Shown here: positions 456-38,255 of the stretch, piece after piece
Numbering within the stretch: the first letter of the stretch is position 1
How the letters are laid out: every line of letters begins with the position of its first letter
Assembly: GCA_002256025.1 (NCBI GenBank)
Contig: NKIB01015105.1
Location: 1-38,255, forward strand
Reading direction: 5' to 3'
DNA: 38,255 bases
DNA from: Asterionella formosa
Lineage: Eukaryota
Translations under genes and position numbers: made by a program
The notes under the pieces: generated by a model
What the model saw: the letters and a program-made list of their open reading frames with translations, nothing else
The model's database searches: none
What the model was told of the DNA's origin: nothing

Positions 456-660
456 TTTTATAGGATGATACAAATAATGAGTACCATTTTTTAAGTATAA
501 TTACAAAAAAACTATAGAAACTTAAACAAATAAAATTTCTTTTGATAATTAACAATCAATTATTTTTTAGATAGCTACCACTCTGCTCTTTACAGCAAAA
601 ATACGGTAAACTGAAACAAATAAACTCTCTTTACACAATCCTTTTCTGATAAAATTAAAC

Positions 661-2880
661 TTATCCTATGAAAATACTTTCAAAATTTATTTTCTCAAAC
701 CTTAAAACATTAGAAGACTGAATCATAATAAAAGAAAACCTAGAATAATAACTTTCATTTGCTAAATAAAAATCATAAATAAAGCGCTTTAATTTTGTAT
801 TAAAAATATTTACCTTACATATATCAAATTTAAACAACCTATTTTTAATTATCTGACATTTTTTATTAAAAAAAAATGATAAATTTGAAATACCTTGTGA
901 AGCATAAGCCAAAAAAATAATATAATTTCTCAACCTATTTAAATTCCAATCCAAAAACAACAATTTCGAAGTCGAATGTAATAATTTTAAACTTTTGGAA
1001 TTTGAAAGTAATATTCTTAGTATTTCCCAATCGTTTTTTTTTTCTAAATTTGTTACTAAAATTTTAGTAGATATTTTAGTAATACCCTCAGTACTTATAA
1101 AAGTCCCAGAATTTTCAAAAAAATTTGAACTAGGTAAATACAAATACTCTGAGATTTTACTCAACAATAATTTTTTTGAACAACAACCTAATTTTATAAT
1201 AAAATACTCCACTTGTATTGCTAAATAATTTAACAATTTTAAATTTAACATTTTATTTAAATTTGATATCTCATTTAAAGAAGAATTAAAAAAAAATAAC
1301 CCAGTACTATTTAAAAAATCTTTGTTTGAAAAACCAGAAAATACATTTAAAATATTTATACCTACAGTATTCAAAGAGCTTGAAAGTAAATTAAAACCAT
1401 TCCAGGTATTTTTTTTTAATTTAGAATAAGTTTCAATTATTAGCATTGATTTAAAAAAAAAATTGCTATCAATTCTATTTGATATTCGTTGATTTAAAAC
1501 TAAAGAAGGCTTGGATGTAATAAAATATTGAGATAAAATATGATTTCCTTCAGAAATGATTTTTAAGAATTTAGGGTTAGTACTTAAAGTTTTAACCTGA
1601 TAAGTTAAATCAATCGTTGAATTCATACTAAAAATCTCAAATTTCCCTTTTAATTGTCTTTGTCTCATTTTAACATTTAAATAAAAACCTTCGTAACGTG
1701 GATTAACGCCAATTAAAAAACAAAACTTAGACTTATTAAAATTTACAGAAGTCATCAAATCATTAAATTTAAAATATTGCTCTAAATCTAAACTACTATT
1801 TACCAACATGTTCCTTCTGAGTTTAATGAATTTATACCTTTTTGAAATAAAAAATAACAAATTTATAGATTCATTATTTAGTGTACTACCAAAAATTAAA
1901 AACAATGGTTTTAATTTTAAATTATGTCTAGATAAATGATCATAAAAATAAAATAATTTAATCAACTTTTTAAATAGTCCAAACCAAATGTTATTTAATT
2001 CCTCTGTATTTAAAGAATAATCTGACGGAAACAATCCATCAAAAGAAAACCTAGTTTTATTAGAAATCCATTCCGTCTTATTAATATTAAAATTTGAATG
2101 AATTTTAATTATTTTTTTATTTTTTATTTGTAAAATAATACCTAAACCAAAACCATCTGAAAAATCTATGGAATTTATAAATTTTAGCTCCCAACTTCGA
2201 TTGATGAAAGGATAAAATTTTGATGTTAAAGCACCCACAGGACATAAATCGATCACATTCCCAGAAATTTCGGATTGAAAAGTTTTGGAAATATACGTCC
2301 CAATTTCAGTGCTAAAACTCCTACCAAAAGCACCCAAATCTTGTACACCTGCAATCTCAGTAGCAAATCGAATACACCTAGTACAATGTATACAACGAGT
2401 CATTACTGTTTTAATTATTGGACCAATATTTTTATCAATAACAATTTTTTTATAATTATAAAACCTTTTTCTTGTAAACCCAAAAAATAAAGATTGATCT
2501 TGTAAATCACACTCACCGGCTTGATCACAAATTGGACAATCTAAAGGGTGATTAAGCAATAAAAACTCTAACACATTTTCTCTAGCTTTTTTAACTAAAG
2601 GACTATTTGTATAAATTTCAGTATTTGGTAATAAAGTAGTTTTTGCATTGACTGAACAAGAAATCATTGGTTTATTAGACTGTTTTAACTCTATTAGACA
2701 CATTCTACAATTACCCGCGATTGATAACTCTTTGTGATAGCAATAATGTGGAATTTTAAACCCTAATCGTGAACAAAGCTCAATAACCGGTGAAACAACT
2801 TTCCATTTTTCAATATAATTCAAATTACTAAATTCTGCGACATAATTGTACTTATGATTATTTATCTTAAAATAACTCAA
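661..2880 (-). CDS. nad11: NADH dehydrogenase subunit 11 (NuoG/75 kDa), unsplit; probable TTG start
   Basis: Fe-S motifs CYHKELSIAGNCRMC, HPLDCPICDQAGECDLQ, RCIHCTRCIRF, DLCPVGAL. The ORF-track start at 2973 lies in antisense trnD; start at 2880 is inferred. Confidence 0.93.
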   Translation of the reverse strand: MSYFKINNHKYNYVAEFSNLNYIEKWKVVSPVIELCSRLGFKIPHYCYHKELSIAGNCRMCLIELKQSNKPMISCSVNAKTTLLPNTEIYTNSPLVKKARENVLEFLLLNHPLDCPICDQAGECDLQDQSLFFGFTRKRFYNYKKIVIDKNIGPIIKTVMTRCIHCTRCIRFATEIAGVQDLGAFGRSFSTEIGTYISKTFQSEISGNVIDLCPVGALTSKFYPFINRSWELKFINSIDFSDGFGLGIILQIKNKKIIKIHSNFNINKTEWISNKTRFSFDGLFPSDYSLNTEELNNIWFGLFKKLIKLFYFYDHLSRHNLKLKPLFLIFGSTLNNESINLLFFISKRYKFIKLRRNMLVNSSLDLEQYFKFNDLMTSVNFNKSKFCFLIGVNPRYEGFYLNVKMRQRQLKGKFEIFSMNSTIDLTYQVKTLSTNPKFLKIISEGNHILSQYFITSKPSLVLNQRISNRIDSNFFFKSMLIIETYSKLKKNTWNGFNLLSSSLNTVGINILNVFSGFSNKDFLNSTGLFFFNSSLNEISNLNKMLNLKLLNYLAIQVEYFIIKLGCCSKKLLLSKISEYLYLPSSNFFENSGTFISTEGITKISTKILVTNLEKKNDWEILRILLSNSKSLKLLHSTSKLLFLDWNLNRLRNYIIFLAYASQGISNLSFFFNKKCQIIKNRLFKFDICKVNIFNTKLKRFIYDFYLANESYYSRFSFIMIQSSNVLRFEKINFESIFIG

Positions 2881-2985: not shown

Positions 2986-3297
2986 TTATTTATTTATATT
3001 TATAATTTGATTTATTTGTATTGTATTCCTAAGTTTAAAATATGTGGTTAAAATTGCTAGACCTATTGAAGACTCTGTAGCAGCAACTGTTAAAATAAAT
3101 AAAACAAAAATTTGACCTAAAATATCGTCTAAATATAATGAAAATAAAGTAAAATTAATATTTACACTTAAAAGTAGTATTTCTAGTGCAATTATTGTTA
3201 TTAAAATATTTTTTCTGTTTAATATTAATCCTAAAATACTAATAAAAAATAAAATGACTGTTATTCGTAAAGAATTTAATATATTTAAAACTAACAC
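2986..3297 (-). CDS. nad4L: NADH dehydrogenase subunit 4L; probable GTG start
   Basis: NRKNILITIIALEILLL, AATESSIGLAIL. ORF-track start lies inside trnK. Confidence 0.93.
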   Translation of the reverse strand: MLVLNILNSLRITVILFFISILGLILNRKNILITIIALEILLLSVNINFTLFSLYLDDILGQIFVLFILTVAATESSIGLAILTTYFKLRNTIQINQIININK

Positions 3298-3714: not shown

Positions 3715-4116
3715 CTAAAAAAAAATTGTAGTTTTTACAGGCAATTTTGCACCACCCGTTCTAAAAGCTTTTAAAGCCGTCTTTAGATTTATACCGCAAA
3801 CTTCAAAAATAATAGAACCTCCTCTGATTTTAGCAGCCCAATGAGAAAAAGCTCCTTTCCCTTTTCCCATCCGAACTTCTGTTGGTTTAGAAGTTATAGG
3901 TTGATCAGGAAAAATTCTAACCCAAACTTTTCCTTTACGTTTAATCTTTCTAGTAATAGCCTGTCTAGCAGCCTCAATTTGTTTAGCTGTAACAAAACCA
4001 GAATTCATGGCTTTTAAACCTATAGTGCCAAACTTTAAAGAGTTTGACTTATACTCATATTTTTTTAATTTACCCTTTTTTACTTTTTTAAATTTTAATT
4101 TTTTAGGAAACAACAT
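3715..4116 (-). CDS. rpl16: Ribosomal protein L16
   Basis: QIEAARQAI, KPTEVRMGKGKG. Confidence 0.98.
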   Translation of the reverse strand: MLFPKKLKFKKVKKGKLKKYEYKSNSLKFGTIGLKAMNSGFVTAKQIEAARQAITRKIKRKGKVWVRIFPDQPITSKPTEVRMGKGKGAFSHWAAKIRGGSIIFEVCGINLKTALKAFRTGGAKLPVKTTIFF

Positions 4117-12080: not shown

Positions 12081-12839
12081 TTAACTGTAAGATTTTATAA
12101 CACTATTTAAATTCAAATAAAACGGAAAGGACGTAATTAAAGGATTTAAACTTAAATCTTCGATAAAAATTATTTGATAAGTTCTATAATTTATTTGAAA
12201 ATGTTTTGTTGGTATAGGCCAAAAATTTGAAATAAAATAAGTAAAATTATGGAGATTAATCAAAAATCTTTTTTGAGGAACTAAATCAATTAAATCCCCA
12301 TTTTTTACTTGATAAGAATTTATATTTATCGTTTTACCATTTACTCTAATATGTTTATGAGAAATTAATTGTTTAGCATGCCGCATACTATAAGCAAAAT
12401 TACACCTAAACAAAGTAGTGTCTAATCTTTTCTCAAAAAAATTAATAAAAATTTTGGATAAGATCCAAAACTTCTTTTTTAAAACTTTATTTTTTTGTTT
12501 AGCTATTTTAACCCGTGTTTTAATATATTTCCTCAATAAATAACCATAAAAAAAAGAAAAACGACTATTACAATGAACTGTATTTTTATGTCCCCATTTA
12601 AAACGGCTTTGAAAATCTGAGACGTAATCACAACTTTGGTCATAAAACTGAAAATCCTGTTTTTTAGTTAAAGAGGTTTTCTCTAAATGACCAATGAATT
12701 TTTGCCATTTTTTTTTTTTAAAATTTATGACTTTGGTTCTATTTTGAACATTTTTTTTTATATTTATTAATTTTTTATACAAAAGCTTAAATCGACGTTT
12801 TTTTATTTTTAAATGTAAAATTTCTTTTTTTTTATTCAT
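12081..12839 (-). CDS. rps4: Ribosomal protein S4
   Basis: S4 domain EKRLDTTLFR..AKQLISHKHIRVNG. Confidence 0.95.
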   Translation of the reverse strand: MNKKKEILHLKIKKRRFKLLYKKLINIKKNVQNRTKVINFKKKKWQKFIGHLEKTSLTKKQDFQFYDQSCDYVSDFQSRFKWGHKNTVHCNSRFSFFYGYLLRKYIKTRVKIAKQKNKVLKKKFWILSKIFINFFEKRLDTTLFRCNFAYSMRHAKQLISHKHIRVNGKTININSYQVKNGDLIDLVPQKRFLINLHNFTYFISNFWPIPTKHFQINYRTYQIIFIEDLSLNPLITSFPFYLNLNSVIKSYS

Positions 12840-16898: not shown

Positions 16899-17135
16899 TA
16901 AAAAAGGGTAATTTCGTTTAATTTGTTTCTAAGAAAGCTGTTGCAAGAATACTCTCTAAATACAGCTATATTATCCTACGAAAACATAGCAGCTATTTTG
17001 GGTAAAAACTAGTTTTTCGTTTTTTGGTCAAAAATATCCCTTCTAATAATTGCGATGTTATCATATCTAAACAATGACAGCTTTTTTAGGAAGTCAAATT
17101 GTGTATTTTAGGGCTTTTCAAAATCTTGAAAATAG
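16899..17135 (-). repeat. Diverged inverted copy of the control-region repeat unit
   Basis: Reverse complement is colinear with 37752-~38005, e.g. ACCAAAAAACGAAAAA(C/A)TAGTTTTTACCCAAAATA. Confidence 0.88.
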
Positions 17136-17193
17136 TTTTTTTAAAATTTATGAAATTTTATTGCAAAACTATCAAATATTCATTCAAAGTATT

Positions 17194-17382
17194 TTAAAAA
17201 TACTTTCTTCTAAAATTTAAATCTTTAACTAAACCCGAAATTGGTAGCATACATTCTTTGGATAAGAAAATGGGATTCTTCCCATGAAAAATAAATTTTT
17301 TTTTTTTACATACAATAATGTTAAACTTATTAATAATTAAACTACCATCAAAAAATATCTGTAAATTTTTTCTTTTTAACAT
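17194..17382 (-). CDS. rpl31: 62-aa basic ORF, probable divergent ribosomal protein L31
   Basis: FFDGS motif near the N-terminus and C-terminal FRRKYF, both bL31-like; ATG 15 nt after the nad7 stop. Confidence 0.55.
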   Translation of the reverse strand: MLKRKNLQIFFDGSLIINKFNIIVCKKKKFIFHGKNPIFLSKECMLPISGLVKDLNFRRKYF

Positions 17383-17397
17383 ACCTAATTTTTAAAA

Positions 17398-31359: not shown

Positions 31360-32007
<648 letters not shown>

Positions 32008-32189
32008 TTAGAAATATACCCTGCCCTCCGAACCGTACATGATAGTTTCCCATCATACAGCTCTCTAGCAAACAAAAATTTCTCATATTTAATTTTTTCT
32101 TTTTTTATTATTTAAATTTAAGTATCTTACTTTATTTTTAACTTTTCATAGCTGAAACCTTTTTCTACAAAAAAGTTATTATTTATATC

Positions 32190-32351
32190 AATAAAAAAAG
32201 ATCGACTTTCTCGGAAATTCCCCGACCTATTATGCACATGTTATAATTTTCACTATCACACTTTTTATAGATCTTACACGTTGAATTTCTAAGTTGTCCA
32301 GTGTCTAACGACTCATCGAATTGAAAGACAAGTTAAACTATTAAACCAAAT
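32190..32351 (-). pseudogene. Decayed DNA-binding/HNH endonuclease tail of the intron ORF
   Basis: After the stop: IWFNSLT, QFDES, then TLDNLEIQRVRSIKSV..CA**VGEFPRKSIFF across frameshifts. Confidence 0.6.
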
Positions 32352-36562
<4,211 letters not shown>

Positions 36563-36566
36563 GGTT

Positions 36567-36626
36567 TAAAGAGTTTTGGAATTGAACCAAAATTTGTATA
36601 TGTTTTACCAATTAAACTAACTCTTT
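36567..36626 (-). ncRNA. tRNA-like element lacking the anticodon arm
   Basis: AAAGAGT-TA-GTTT AATTGGTA AAAC-ATATACAAAT-TTTGG TTCAATT CCAAA-ACTCTTT-A. Confidence 0.8.
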
Positions 36627-36629
36627 TAA

Positions 36630-36734
36630 AAAAATTTCAATTTAAAATAATTTTTACATAATTCCCAAAACTTAGTATTTATCAAAATATTTTAAAAATC
36701 ACTTGAGTTCTTTATGGATTCAGGAATCAATTTT
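36630..36734 (-). rRNA. rrn5: Candidate divergent, possibly permuted, mitochondrial 5S rRNA
   Basis: CCTGAATCCATAAAGAACTCAAGTGA resembles 5S helix III/loop C; TACTAAGTTTTGGGAA resembles the loop E arm; ~105-nt slot between two tRNA folds. Confidence 0.55.
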
Positions 36735-36806
36735 AAAGTAATAACAGATTTGAACCGTTAACATTTTCGTTGTAAGCGAAACACTCTACCATTGAGTTAA
36801 TTACTT
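36735..36806 (-). tRNA. trnV: tRNA-Val(UAC)
   Basis: TTTCG-CTTACAA-CGAAA anticodon arm. Confidence 0.94.
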
Positions 36807-36809
36807 AAA

Positions 36810-37226
36810 TTAAACTTTTTTCCAACATAAACCACCAACATACCAAACATAAATAAAACCAATACCCAATTCAAATACAAAATCAATCATAGACCAAAAA
36901 CCTAAAGAATTTAATTTAACCAAACAAATACTCCAAGGTAAAAGAAACATTGTTTCAACGTCAAAAACCACGAATAAAATAGCGATTAAATAAAATTTAA
37001 CGTCAAATTGATGTCTTGCGTCTTCATATGGCTCAAACCCACACTCATAAGATGATAGTTTTTCAGTTTCAGGATTTTGAATGACCAATAAAAAAGAAAA
37101 ATTAATTATTATAAGAGATAATAATAAAGCAACTACCAAATATATAACTATAGTAATATAATTTAATCGCAATAATGATTCGACGTTATTAAAAAAAACA
37201 GTAGTTTCAAACAGGTTTTGTAACAT
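36810..37226 (-). CDS. nad3: NADH dehydrogenase subunit 3
   Basis: EKLSSYECGFEP, FYLIAILFVVFDVE. Confidence 0.98.
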   Translation of the reverse strand: MLQNLFETTVFFNNVESLLRLNYITIVIYLVVALLLSLIIINFSFLLVIQNPETEKLSSYECGFEPYEDARHQFDVKFYLIAILFVVFDVETMFLLPWSICLVKLNSLGFWSMIDFVFELGIGFIYVWYVGGLCWKKV

Positions 37227-37493: not shown

Positions 37494-37547
37494 TTGTAAT
37501 ATCTAAATCGATCAACCCGCTCACTACTTAAATTTTATCTTTTTTAT

Positions 37548-37719
37548 AAATTATTTAAAAAAGAAGATCCACTACTAAAATCAAAATTATCAAAAGAAAT
37601 CAAATTCGTTTAGGGTTTGCCTTTTTTTAAGATTTTAAAAATTATTTAAAGAAAAAAATCCACTACTAAAATCAAAATTATCAAAAGAAATCAAATTCGT
37701 TTAGGGTTTGCCTTTTTTT
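37548..37719 (+). repeat. 91-bp tandem duplication (about 2 copies)
   Basis: ATCCACTACTAAAATCAAAATTATCAAAAGAAATCAAATTCGTTTAGGGTTTGCCTTTTTTT at 37567 and 37658. Confidence 0.95.
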
Positions 37720-38255
37720 CATATTTTTATACTTTTTTTTATATTTTCATATTTTTAAGATTTTGAAAAACCCTAAAACACTCATTTTGACGCCCTAAAA
37801 AACTACCATGTTTACGTAGGATAACACCGTGTTATTTAGACTGGTATTTTTAACCAAAAAACGAAAAAATAGTTTTTACCCAAAATAAACTACCATGTTT
37901 ACGTACGGTAACACCGTCGTATTTGAAGGGTATTTTTGCAATCCCTAGTACCACTCAGGATTGAATATTTTGAATTGAACTTTAAAAACGAAATTACCTT
38001 TTTTTAACGGGTTTGAATTTGTACAGCGGTAAAATACCAACAACAAATTTCATTTTTTAAACAGTAAACAATATATATTTCAAAGAATAATGAAATTATA
38101 TTTTTTAGATGGTCTTGAATCTGTACGACACTAAAATACCAACAACAAATTTTATTTTTTTATACTTTTTTTATATTTTTATATTTTTTTTCATATTTTT
38201 ATACTTTTTTTTATATTTTTATACTTTTTTTATATTTTTATACTTTTTTTTATAT
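37720..38255 (+). repeat. Control-region ~430-bp repeat unit flanked by T-rich 20-21-nt minisatellite
   Basis: Matches 1-425; ends in repeated ATATTTTTATACTTTTTTTT. Confidence 0.9.

Follow-up and report, generated by a model that had tools for sequence, protein, structure and literature searches.

A tRNA-like element lacking an anticodon arm adjoins cob in a diatom mitochondrial genome and may serve as an RNA processing signal

Results

Genes at the cob locus

The sequence analyzed here, a stretch of 38,255 nucleotides that we call the window, is compact: most genes lie on the minus strand and adjoin within 1 to 20 nt, and most of the protein-coding genes follow one another with no tRNA between them. 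To judge from sequence comparisons of its cob gene, the host is a radial-centric-like diatom mitochondrion. The closest named relatives of the cob product were those of Coscinodiscus (70 to 72% identity) and Paralia (69%), and the metagenome proteins P0002 to P0007 were 84 to 91% identical to it. In a quick cob tree, the window grouped with these metagenome proteins inside a well-supported clade of 20 rows that includes Paralia and Coscinodiscus. Elsewhere in the window, the cox1 frame continues into a long intron-encoded open reading frame (ORF) (31992 to 35330, minus strand; a 992-amino-acid reading frame), with a group II intron domain match at 31992 to 32065. Stretches that contain neither an RNA gene nor an ORF of at least 70 amino acids are longest at 16899 to 17397 and 37494 to 38255; the second ends in an open frame, repetitive and rich in T, that continues past the end of the window.

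In contrast to the compactness of the genome, a 172-nt noncoding stretch stands out upstream of cob. The cytochrome b gene itself, identified from its ORF, its homologs and an alignment of the N terminus, occupies 35333 to 36562 on the minus strand and encodes 409 amino acids. The ATG at 36562 is its likely start codon because the N-terminal extension that it implies is common to other diatoms in the alignment. An in-frame TAA (36568 to 36566) lies just upstream of this ATG. Four nucleotides, AACC (36563 to 36566), separate the start codon from a tRNA-like element without an anticodon arm (36567 to 36626, 60 nt). The element is followed on its upstream side by a 108-nt spacer (36627 to 36734), an intact trnV(uac) (36735 to 36806; called by ARAGORN, 65.6 bits with the Rfam model), nad3 (36810 to 37226; an ORF matching Pfam PF00507 with an E value of 1.6e-30), trnS, trnE, and trnQ, in that order on the minus strand. 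The element thus shares its strand with nad3, trnV, and cob, and the intact trnV lies 108 nt upstream of it.

Structure of the element

The element was recognized from its sequence, with the Rfam tRNA model, and in a strict structural scan. Its acceptor stem pairs 36626 to 36620 with 36574 to 36568 (AAAGAGT with ACTCTTT), all seven pairs being Watson-Crick. U8 and A9 follow at 36619 to 36618, and then a D arm (36617 to 36602) whose 4-bp stem is formed by 36617 to 36614 and 36605 to 36602 (GTTT with AAAC) and whose loop, AATTGGTA, includes GG. A connector of 10 nt, ATATACAAAT (36601 to 36592), joins the D stem to the T stem, compared with a distance of about 23 nt in a tRNA. The T arm (36591 to 36575) has a 5-bp stem (36591 to 36587 with 36579 to 36575, TTTGG with CCAAA) and the loop TTCAATT, and the discriminator at 36567 is A. 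All 16 stem pairs are Watson-Crick, and the bases that build the elbow are present (U8, A14, G18, G19, and the TTCAATT loop). Every detail of the anatomy given in the initial annotation, from the 7-bp acceptor stem, U8/A9, and the 4-bp D stem with GG to the 5-bp T stem, its TTCAATT loop, and the 10-nt replacement, was found in the sequence, as were the full Watson-Crick pairing of the stems and the end of the element 4 nt before the cob ATG.

The anticodon stem-loop expected of a decoding tRNA is missing: only 10 nt lie between the D and T stems, and the Rfam alignment deletes the anticodon arm, 13 model positions in all. The element does not resemble tmRNA either. Pair 3-70 is A-U rather than G3-U70, as the initial annotation had also stated, and ARAGORN reported no tmRNA. 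The t-element motif of plant mitochondria, by comparison, is present: GGTTCAATTCC lies within the 5-bp T stem, in a fold that has a 7-bp acceptor stem but lacks the anticodon arm.

With the Rfam tRNA model RF00005, the element scored 47.9 bits (gathering score, 29), with an E value of 2.3e-07 over the whole window, a higher score than that of the window's real trnS(gcu) (45.9 bits). It was the sole match to the tRNA model in the window besides the 24 tRNAs called by ARAGORN. The element itself was not called by ARAGORN on the window and was missed by cmscan with default filters, which is a warning for annotation. The strict structural scan accepted only candidates with 7/7 acceptor and 5/5 T-stem pairs, a D arm, a canonical T loop, and a short connector. 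It returned the element and one false match inside trnY in the window, and one more match in 156 further loci (about 840 kb). The folding energy of the element was not significant (minimum free energy, −8.5 kcal/mol; z score, −1.39).

Recovery of the element in DNA and RNA contigs

The initial annotation had raised the possibility that an anticodon arm was deleted in assembly. We found the element with the same letters and no insertions or deletions in one DNA contig, which may be the source of the window itself, and in three RNA contigs from three metatranscriptome studies, making four studies in all. None of these contigs contained a full anticodon arm. An assembly deletion is therefore very unlikely. 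In addition, 14 DNA runs from 7 studies contained all of the sampled words of the surrounding 2.2-kb stretch; the runs holding the sequence were of freshwater origin. A second strain was identical across the element but also across 335 nt around it in the same contig, and it thus adds little information.

The RNA contigs showed no restored anticodon arm, although contigs of this kind would miss a small mature RNA. Two of them bridge the element into cob. These bridging contigs are uninformative about cleavage because the real trnV is bridged likewise, by one of the two. RNA contigs are also strandless and unable to show RNA ends, and DNA may be carried over into RNA libraries. We considered gaps in the RNA contigs as a sign of cleavage, since X17 was uncovered over 36633 to 36779 and one contig stopped at 36632, 6 nt outside the element. 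The stop at 36632 comes from a single study, and neither observation counts as evidence of cleavage.

Counterparts in other diatom contigs

We built a covariance model from the element, designated R1, and used it to search 156 loci surrounding cob genes in collections of viral and metagenome sequences. The metagenome loci came from a search with the cob N terminus; among the matches listed, cob was at most 79% identical to that of the window, with none from the group at 84 to 91%. A search of genome contigs returned only bacterial cytochrome b loci.

Two loci, L085 and L078, carry a reduced counterpart directly before cob. In L085, a 59-nt element (1098 to 1156) fills the gap between the rps13 stop codon (1094 to 1096) and the cob ATG (1158). 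Its acceptor stem has 7/7 pairs (AAGTAAT with ATTACTT) and its T stem 4/5, with the loop TTCAACT; the D region is loosened, the connector is about 4 nt long, and the R1 score is 27.6 bits. In L078, an element at 3864 to 3918 lies between the cox1 stop codon (3852 to 3854) and the cob ATG (3947). Its acceptor stem, with a 1-nt bulge, has 7/7 pairs; its T stem is the same as that of the window's element (TTTGG with CCAAA), and its R1 score is 17.6 bits. Stem pairs of the counterparts were counted by script. The Rfam tRNA model reported neither element at an E value of 10 or below, and the D arm is kept in neither, the D regions being degenerate. Both are acceptor-plus-T-arm relics rather than near-complete tRNAs, and their proposed homology to the window's element draws on position, the T arm, and the shape of the acceptor stem.

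The window, L085, and L078 all fall inside the single well-supported 20-row clade of the cob tree. The item that precedes the element differs in each: trnV and the spacer in the window, rps13 in L085, and cox1 in L078. From these three different upstream neighbors we infer that the element stays with the 5′ end of cob.

Its distribution is nevertheless patchy. A T-arm-bearing element precedes cob in only 2 of about 53 loci in which cob is at least 60% identical, which speaks against generality. In L081, L082, and L083, which cluster with L085 in the tree, rps13 likewise precedes cob, but only 8 to 18 nt separate the two genes and there is no element. In L084 and L087, the 3′ end of a protein-coding gene (putative cox3) is followed by a short spacer before cob, and in L121, real trnV and trnM genes stand in front of cob. 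Eight other loci of the clade yielded no further match to a tRNA lacking the anticodon arm. The absence from L081 to L083 and the patchy presence suggest that the element is often gained or lost and that cob can be expressed without it. The initial annotation had proposed searching diatom relatives for the fold with a covariance model. That search found the reduced elements in L085 and L078 but also their absence from L081 to L083 and from most loci, and the comparison of conservation covers two distant contigs.

A relaxed scan had no power overall, with 21 matches against a shuffled mean of 17.6 per data set (879,674 nt, both strands). Within 100 nt upstream of cob in about 50 loci, by contrast, about 0.05 matches were expected by chance and 2 were observed besides the window. 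The T-arm motif TTTGG-TTCRANT-CCAAA had three occurrences in the 157 sequences; the 198 ARAGORN tRNAs contained none. Its places are the window, L078, and L102, where it lies right after the cob stop codon and before the next gene. The pattern also occurred in 119 stretches of viral contigs, apparently phage tRNAs. The motif is therefore distinctive only within this data set, since it is an ordinary T arm outside diatom mitochondrial DNA.

Several further tRNA-like sequences were noted. In a different diatom-like contig, L103 carries on the coding strand a 63-nt tRNA-like element without an anticodon arm (3052 to 3114, plus strand), with a 14-nt connector, 12/12 acceptor and T-stem pairs, and 37.7 bits with the Rfam tRNA model; it lies 19 nt past nad5 and 74 nt ahead of cox2. 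A relic in L102 (5146 to 5196, plus strand) consists of a D-arm-like part and a T arm with the window's T stem and a loop that is one base off. It overlaps the final cob codons, ends 13 nt before the ATG of the next gene, and has no evident acceptor pairing. L032 (1849 to 1884) and L037 (1273 to 1316), both on the plus strand, have a short acceptor-plus-T-arm hairpin (T stem GGGGG with CCCTC) at or over the estimated cob start; cob in these contigs is only about 51% identical, and they are probably not from diatoms. Within the window, R1 also matched 12413 to 12477 on the plus strand (25.3 bits). This match carries the T-stem letters of the element, and we attribute it to chance, as it is antisense inside rps4 (12081 to 12839, minus strand), with a noncanonical loop and four bad pairs.

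Origin of the element

When real tRNAs were ranked with R1, trnV(uac) held ranks 1 to 3 and supplied 6 of the best 12 matches, against 13 of 183 overall (hypergeometric P = 2.7e-05). Two of the six, L134 and L135, are loci of one contig, which makes the independent count five. The best real-tRNA matches were trnV genes of other diatoms. The acceptor stem of the L085 element is identical to those of trnV in the window and in L083, and the connector of the window's element contains UACAA, the trnV anticodon and the following two loop bases. Given these likenesses, the element probably arose by duplication of trnV. We hold this origin as probable rather than firm: a hand alignment of the element with the trnV of the window gave only about 58% identity. 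In a diatom-like contig, L138 carries tandem trnV(uac) genes (535 to 607 and 636 to 708, plus strand) that are 28 nt apart and about 600 nt upstream of cob; trnV duplication therefore happens in this group.

Other sources fared less well. The initial annotation had suggested a lost tRNA, trnG(ucc) or trnT. Both are indeed absent from the tRNA lists, but R1 ranked trnV(uac) first, with one trnG(ucc) at 23.0 bits and no trnT among its matches. We also considered the trnM that lies between trnV and cob in L121. Its acceptor stem fits only after a shift of register, and this trnM was not among the R1 matches.

The 108-nt spacer

The spacer between trnV and the element showed a match to the Rfam mtPerm-5S model at 36738 to 36652, with 18.2 bits (gathering score, 39) and an E value of 0.84 in a 361-nt search; in a search of the whole window at E values of 1 or below, the match was not listed. 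The match covers the two stretches of the model that are best conserved. Neither an above-threshold model match nor rrn5 synteny was found, the spacer had no homolog in the 156 loci, and its predicted fold was unremarkable (z score, −0.23). No 5S matches appeared in 12 related loci (E values of 10 or below in four and of 5 or below in eight), and no other 5S gene was detected in the window. Described diatom rrn5 candidates have weak scores and lengths of about 95 to 125 nt, and they lie on the strand of their neighbors at sites that vary; in Thalassiosira, for instance, the candidate follows trnK (PMC4267664). The case for the spacer as a reduced 5S-like rRNA of the mitochondrion is accordingly weak, a lead to follow, and the sequence would otherwise be plain spacer.

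Discussion

We favor, with moderate confidence, the explanation that the element, derived from a tRNA, is a processing signal like the t-elements of plants, which would make it their diatom counterpart. Its anatomy, its position, and its recurrence before cob point in this direction. A copy of a tRNA gene, most likely a trnV(uac) duplicate, would have lost its anticodon arm and with it the ability to decode, while retaining its acceptor stem, D and T arms, and elbow nucleotides. The element would be transcribed within a nad3-trnV-spacer-element-cob precursor, and the coverage of this stretch by contigs from RNA libraries fits such membership. Mitochondrial RNase P would cut at 36627/36626, and RNase Z would cut after the discriminator at 36567. 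Released in this way, the cob mRNA would carry a leader of 4 nt, and the upstream 108-nt RNA would receive its 3′ end; any benefit would come from these two cleavages.

The two cuts are proposed because the parts retained in the element are those read by the enzymes that process tRNA ends and because its T arm fits the t-element motif. The protein-only RNase P, PRORP, is described as not requiring the anticodon stem-loop, and the parts that it needs are those that the element retains; RNase Z is described as cutting after the discriminator base (PMC9181182). The statement of the initial annotation that RNase P/PRORP and RNase Z need the acceptor stem and the D/T elbow, and not the anticodon, agrees with that source, and exactly these parts are kept here (PMC9181182). 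In Arabidopsis, t-elements carrying the T-arm motif GGTTCRANYCC are reported at the mapped 5′ ends of cox1, rps4, and ccmFN1 and also at the 3′ ends of ccmC and nad6 (PMC1920247). The T arm in the window fits this motif as it is given there (PMC1920247). The initial annotation had likewise read the element as punctuation for the 5′ end of cob. With its anatomy correct and two diatom counterparts at hand, this is still the best reading, weakened by the close relatives of L085 that lack the element and by the fact that most genes in the window have no tRNA between them.

The main rival is a serious, if doubtful, one: the element could be a neutral relic, a trnV-like duplicate with a recent loss of 13 nt and no function, its clean stems being a sign of youth. 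An intact trnV lies 108 nt away and L138 carries trnV in tandem, which makes duplication followed by decay plausible. A relic would also explain the patchy distribution, as the relatives of L085 with the rps13-cob order carry no element, and most genes in the window need no tRNA punctuation. The L085 and L078 copies, with their degenerate D regions and scores below Rfam tRNA reporting, look as decaying copies would. Yet under neutrality three lineages would each have lost the anticodon arm but kept the T arm and 7/7 acceptor pairs, and the element would have remained next to cob behind three different upstream neighbors. The intergenic sequence is otherwise unalignable, the 108-nt spacer matching none of the 156 loci, and the genome is compact, all of which argues against a neutral relic.

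We give a slim chance to a stable excised small RNA, possibly CCA tailed, with a nondecoding job of its own and with cob processing as a side effect. A hairpin of acceptor stem and T arm alone suffices for cutting. The window copy keeps a full D arm and elbow, more than such a hairpin, and the Vischeria tRNA-X loci, for which a role of this kind was raised as a question, are described as conserved except for the anticodon arm (PMC13449250). Against this, the D arm was not kept in the L085 and L078 copies, and the element is missing from most of the diatom contigs examined. Scarcely credible is a decoding tRNA whose anticodon arm was dropped in assembly or is put back in the RNA. It would account for trnT and trnG(ucc), which were not found in the window. 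Against it, the same 60 nt recur in the RNA contigs of three studies and in a DNA contig, possibly the window's source; 14 DNA runs from 7 studies contain every sampled word of the 2.2-kb stretch; and the element resembles trnV, not trnT or trnG.

To our knowledge, good documentation of tRNA-like processing signals is limited to the mitochondria of land plants. Their t-elements are described for cox1, rps4, ccmFN1, ccmC, and nad6 of Arabidopsis, for wheat, and for orf138 of Brassica (PMC1920247). As described there, they share with the diatom element a tRNA-like fold with a noncanonical cloverleaf and a GGTTCRANYCC T arm, and they too adjoin mRNA ends, some of them directly upstream of a coding region (PMC1920247). 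Cleavage by RNase P and RNase Z, which we propose for the diatom element, is assumed or demonstrated for them, and their RNA ends are mapped (PMC1920247), whereas those of the diatom element are predictions. The element further differs from the plant t-elements as described in that report in belonging to a diatom with a compact genome, in having a complete D arm, in missing exactly the anticodon arm, and in lying 4 nt from a start codon; no sequence homology connects it with them. Literature on diatom mitochondrial genomes that names t-elements was not found, and among the papers listed on diatom mitochondrial genomes and "tRNA-like" features, none was about such elements in diatoms by its title and abstract opening.

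The closest parallel among ochrophyte mitochondria comes from the eustigmatophyte Vischeria, in which tRNA-X1, tRNA-X2, and tRNA-X3 derive from trnK(uuu) and have the anticodon arm "essentially completely missing" in some cases (PMC13449250). These loci are nondecoding products of a duplicated standard tRNA gene in an ochrophyte mitochondrion, as the element probably is, and their other parts are conserved while the anticodon arm is highly variable or essentially missing (PMC13449250). On the side of the element, the trnV-like origin is backed by the R1 ranking, and conservation was compared in two distant contigs. The Vischeria loci differ in being derived from trnK(uuu) and in being described from one eustigmatophyte genus, whereas the element is trnV-like and found in diatoms (PMC13449250). 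The different sources and hosts suggest independent origins. As far as their report is concerned, the authors leave the function of tRNA-X open (PMC13449250).

Processing at tRNAs and decay of tRNA copies are both familiar from mitochondria, and the element departs from each. In animal mitochondria, RNase P and RNase Z cuts at tRNAs release the flanking mRNAs and rRNAs, often with very short leaders. Those punctuation marks are working tRNAs, whereas the element cannot decode, and most genes in the window have no tRNA between them. Mitochondrial tRNA pseudogenes are duplicated tRNA genes that have lost decoding, and their decay is expected to extend across all arms. In the element, by contrast, 16/16 stem pairs and the elbow are intact and one arm is gone.

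A wider reading, which we consider unlikely, is that trnV-derived mimics without an anticodon arm would form a diatom family of RNase P/RNase Z marks that move with cob and that the mark described here would also set the 3′ end of a reduced 5S-like rRNA in the 108-nt spacer. If the spacer is a 5S-like rRNA, the element would stand between an rRNA and an mRNA, and its existence would be easier to explain. Such an rRNA would also bear on the absence of rrn5 that is reported for most annotated diatom mitogenomes (52 of 68) (PMC8987724). As a well-formed tRNA minus only its anticodon arm, the element would offer a clean natural test of what the enzymes that process tRNA ends need.
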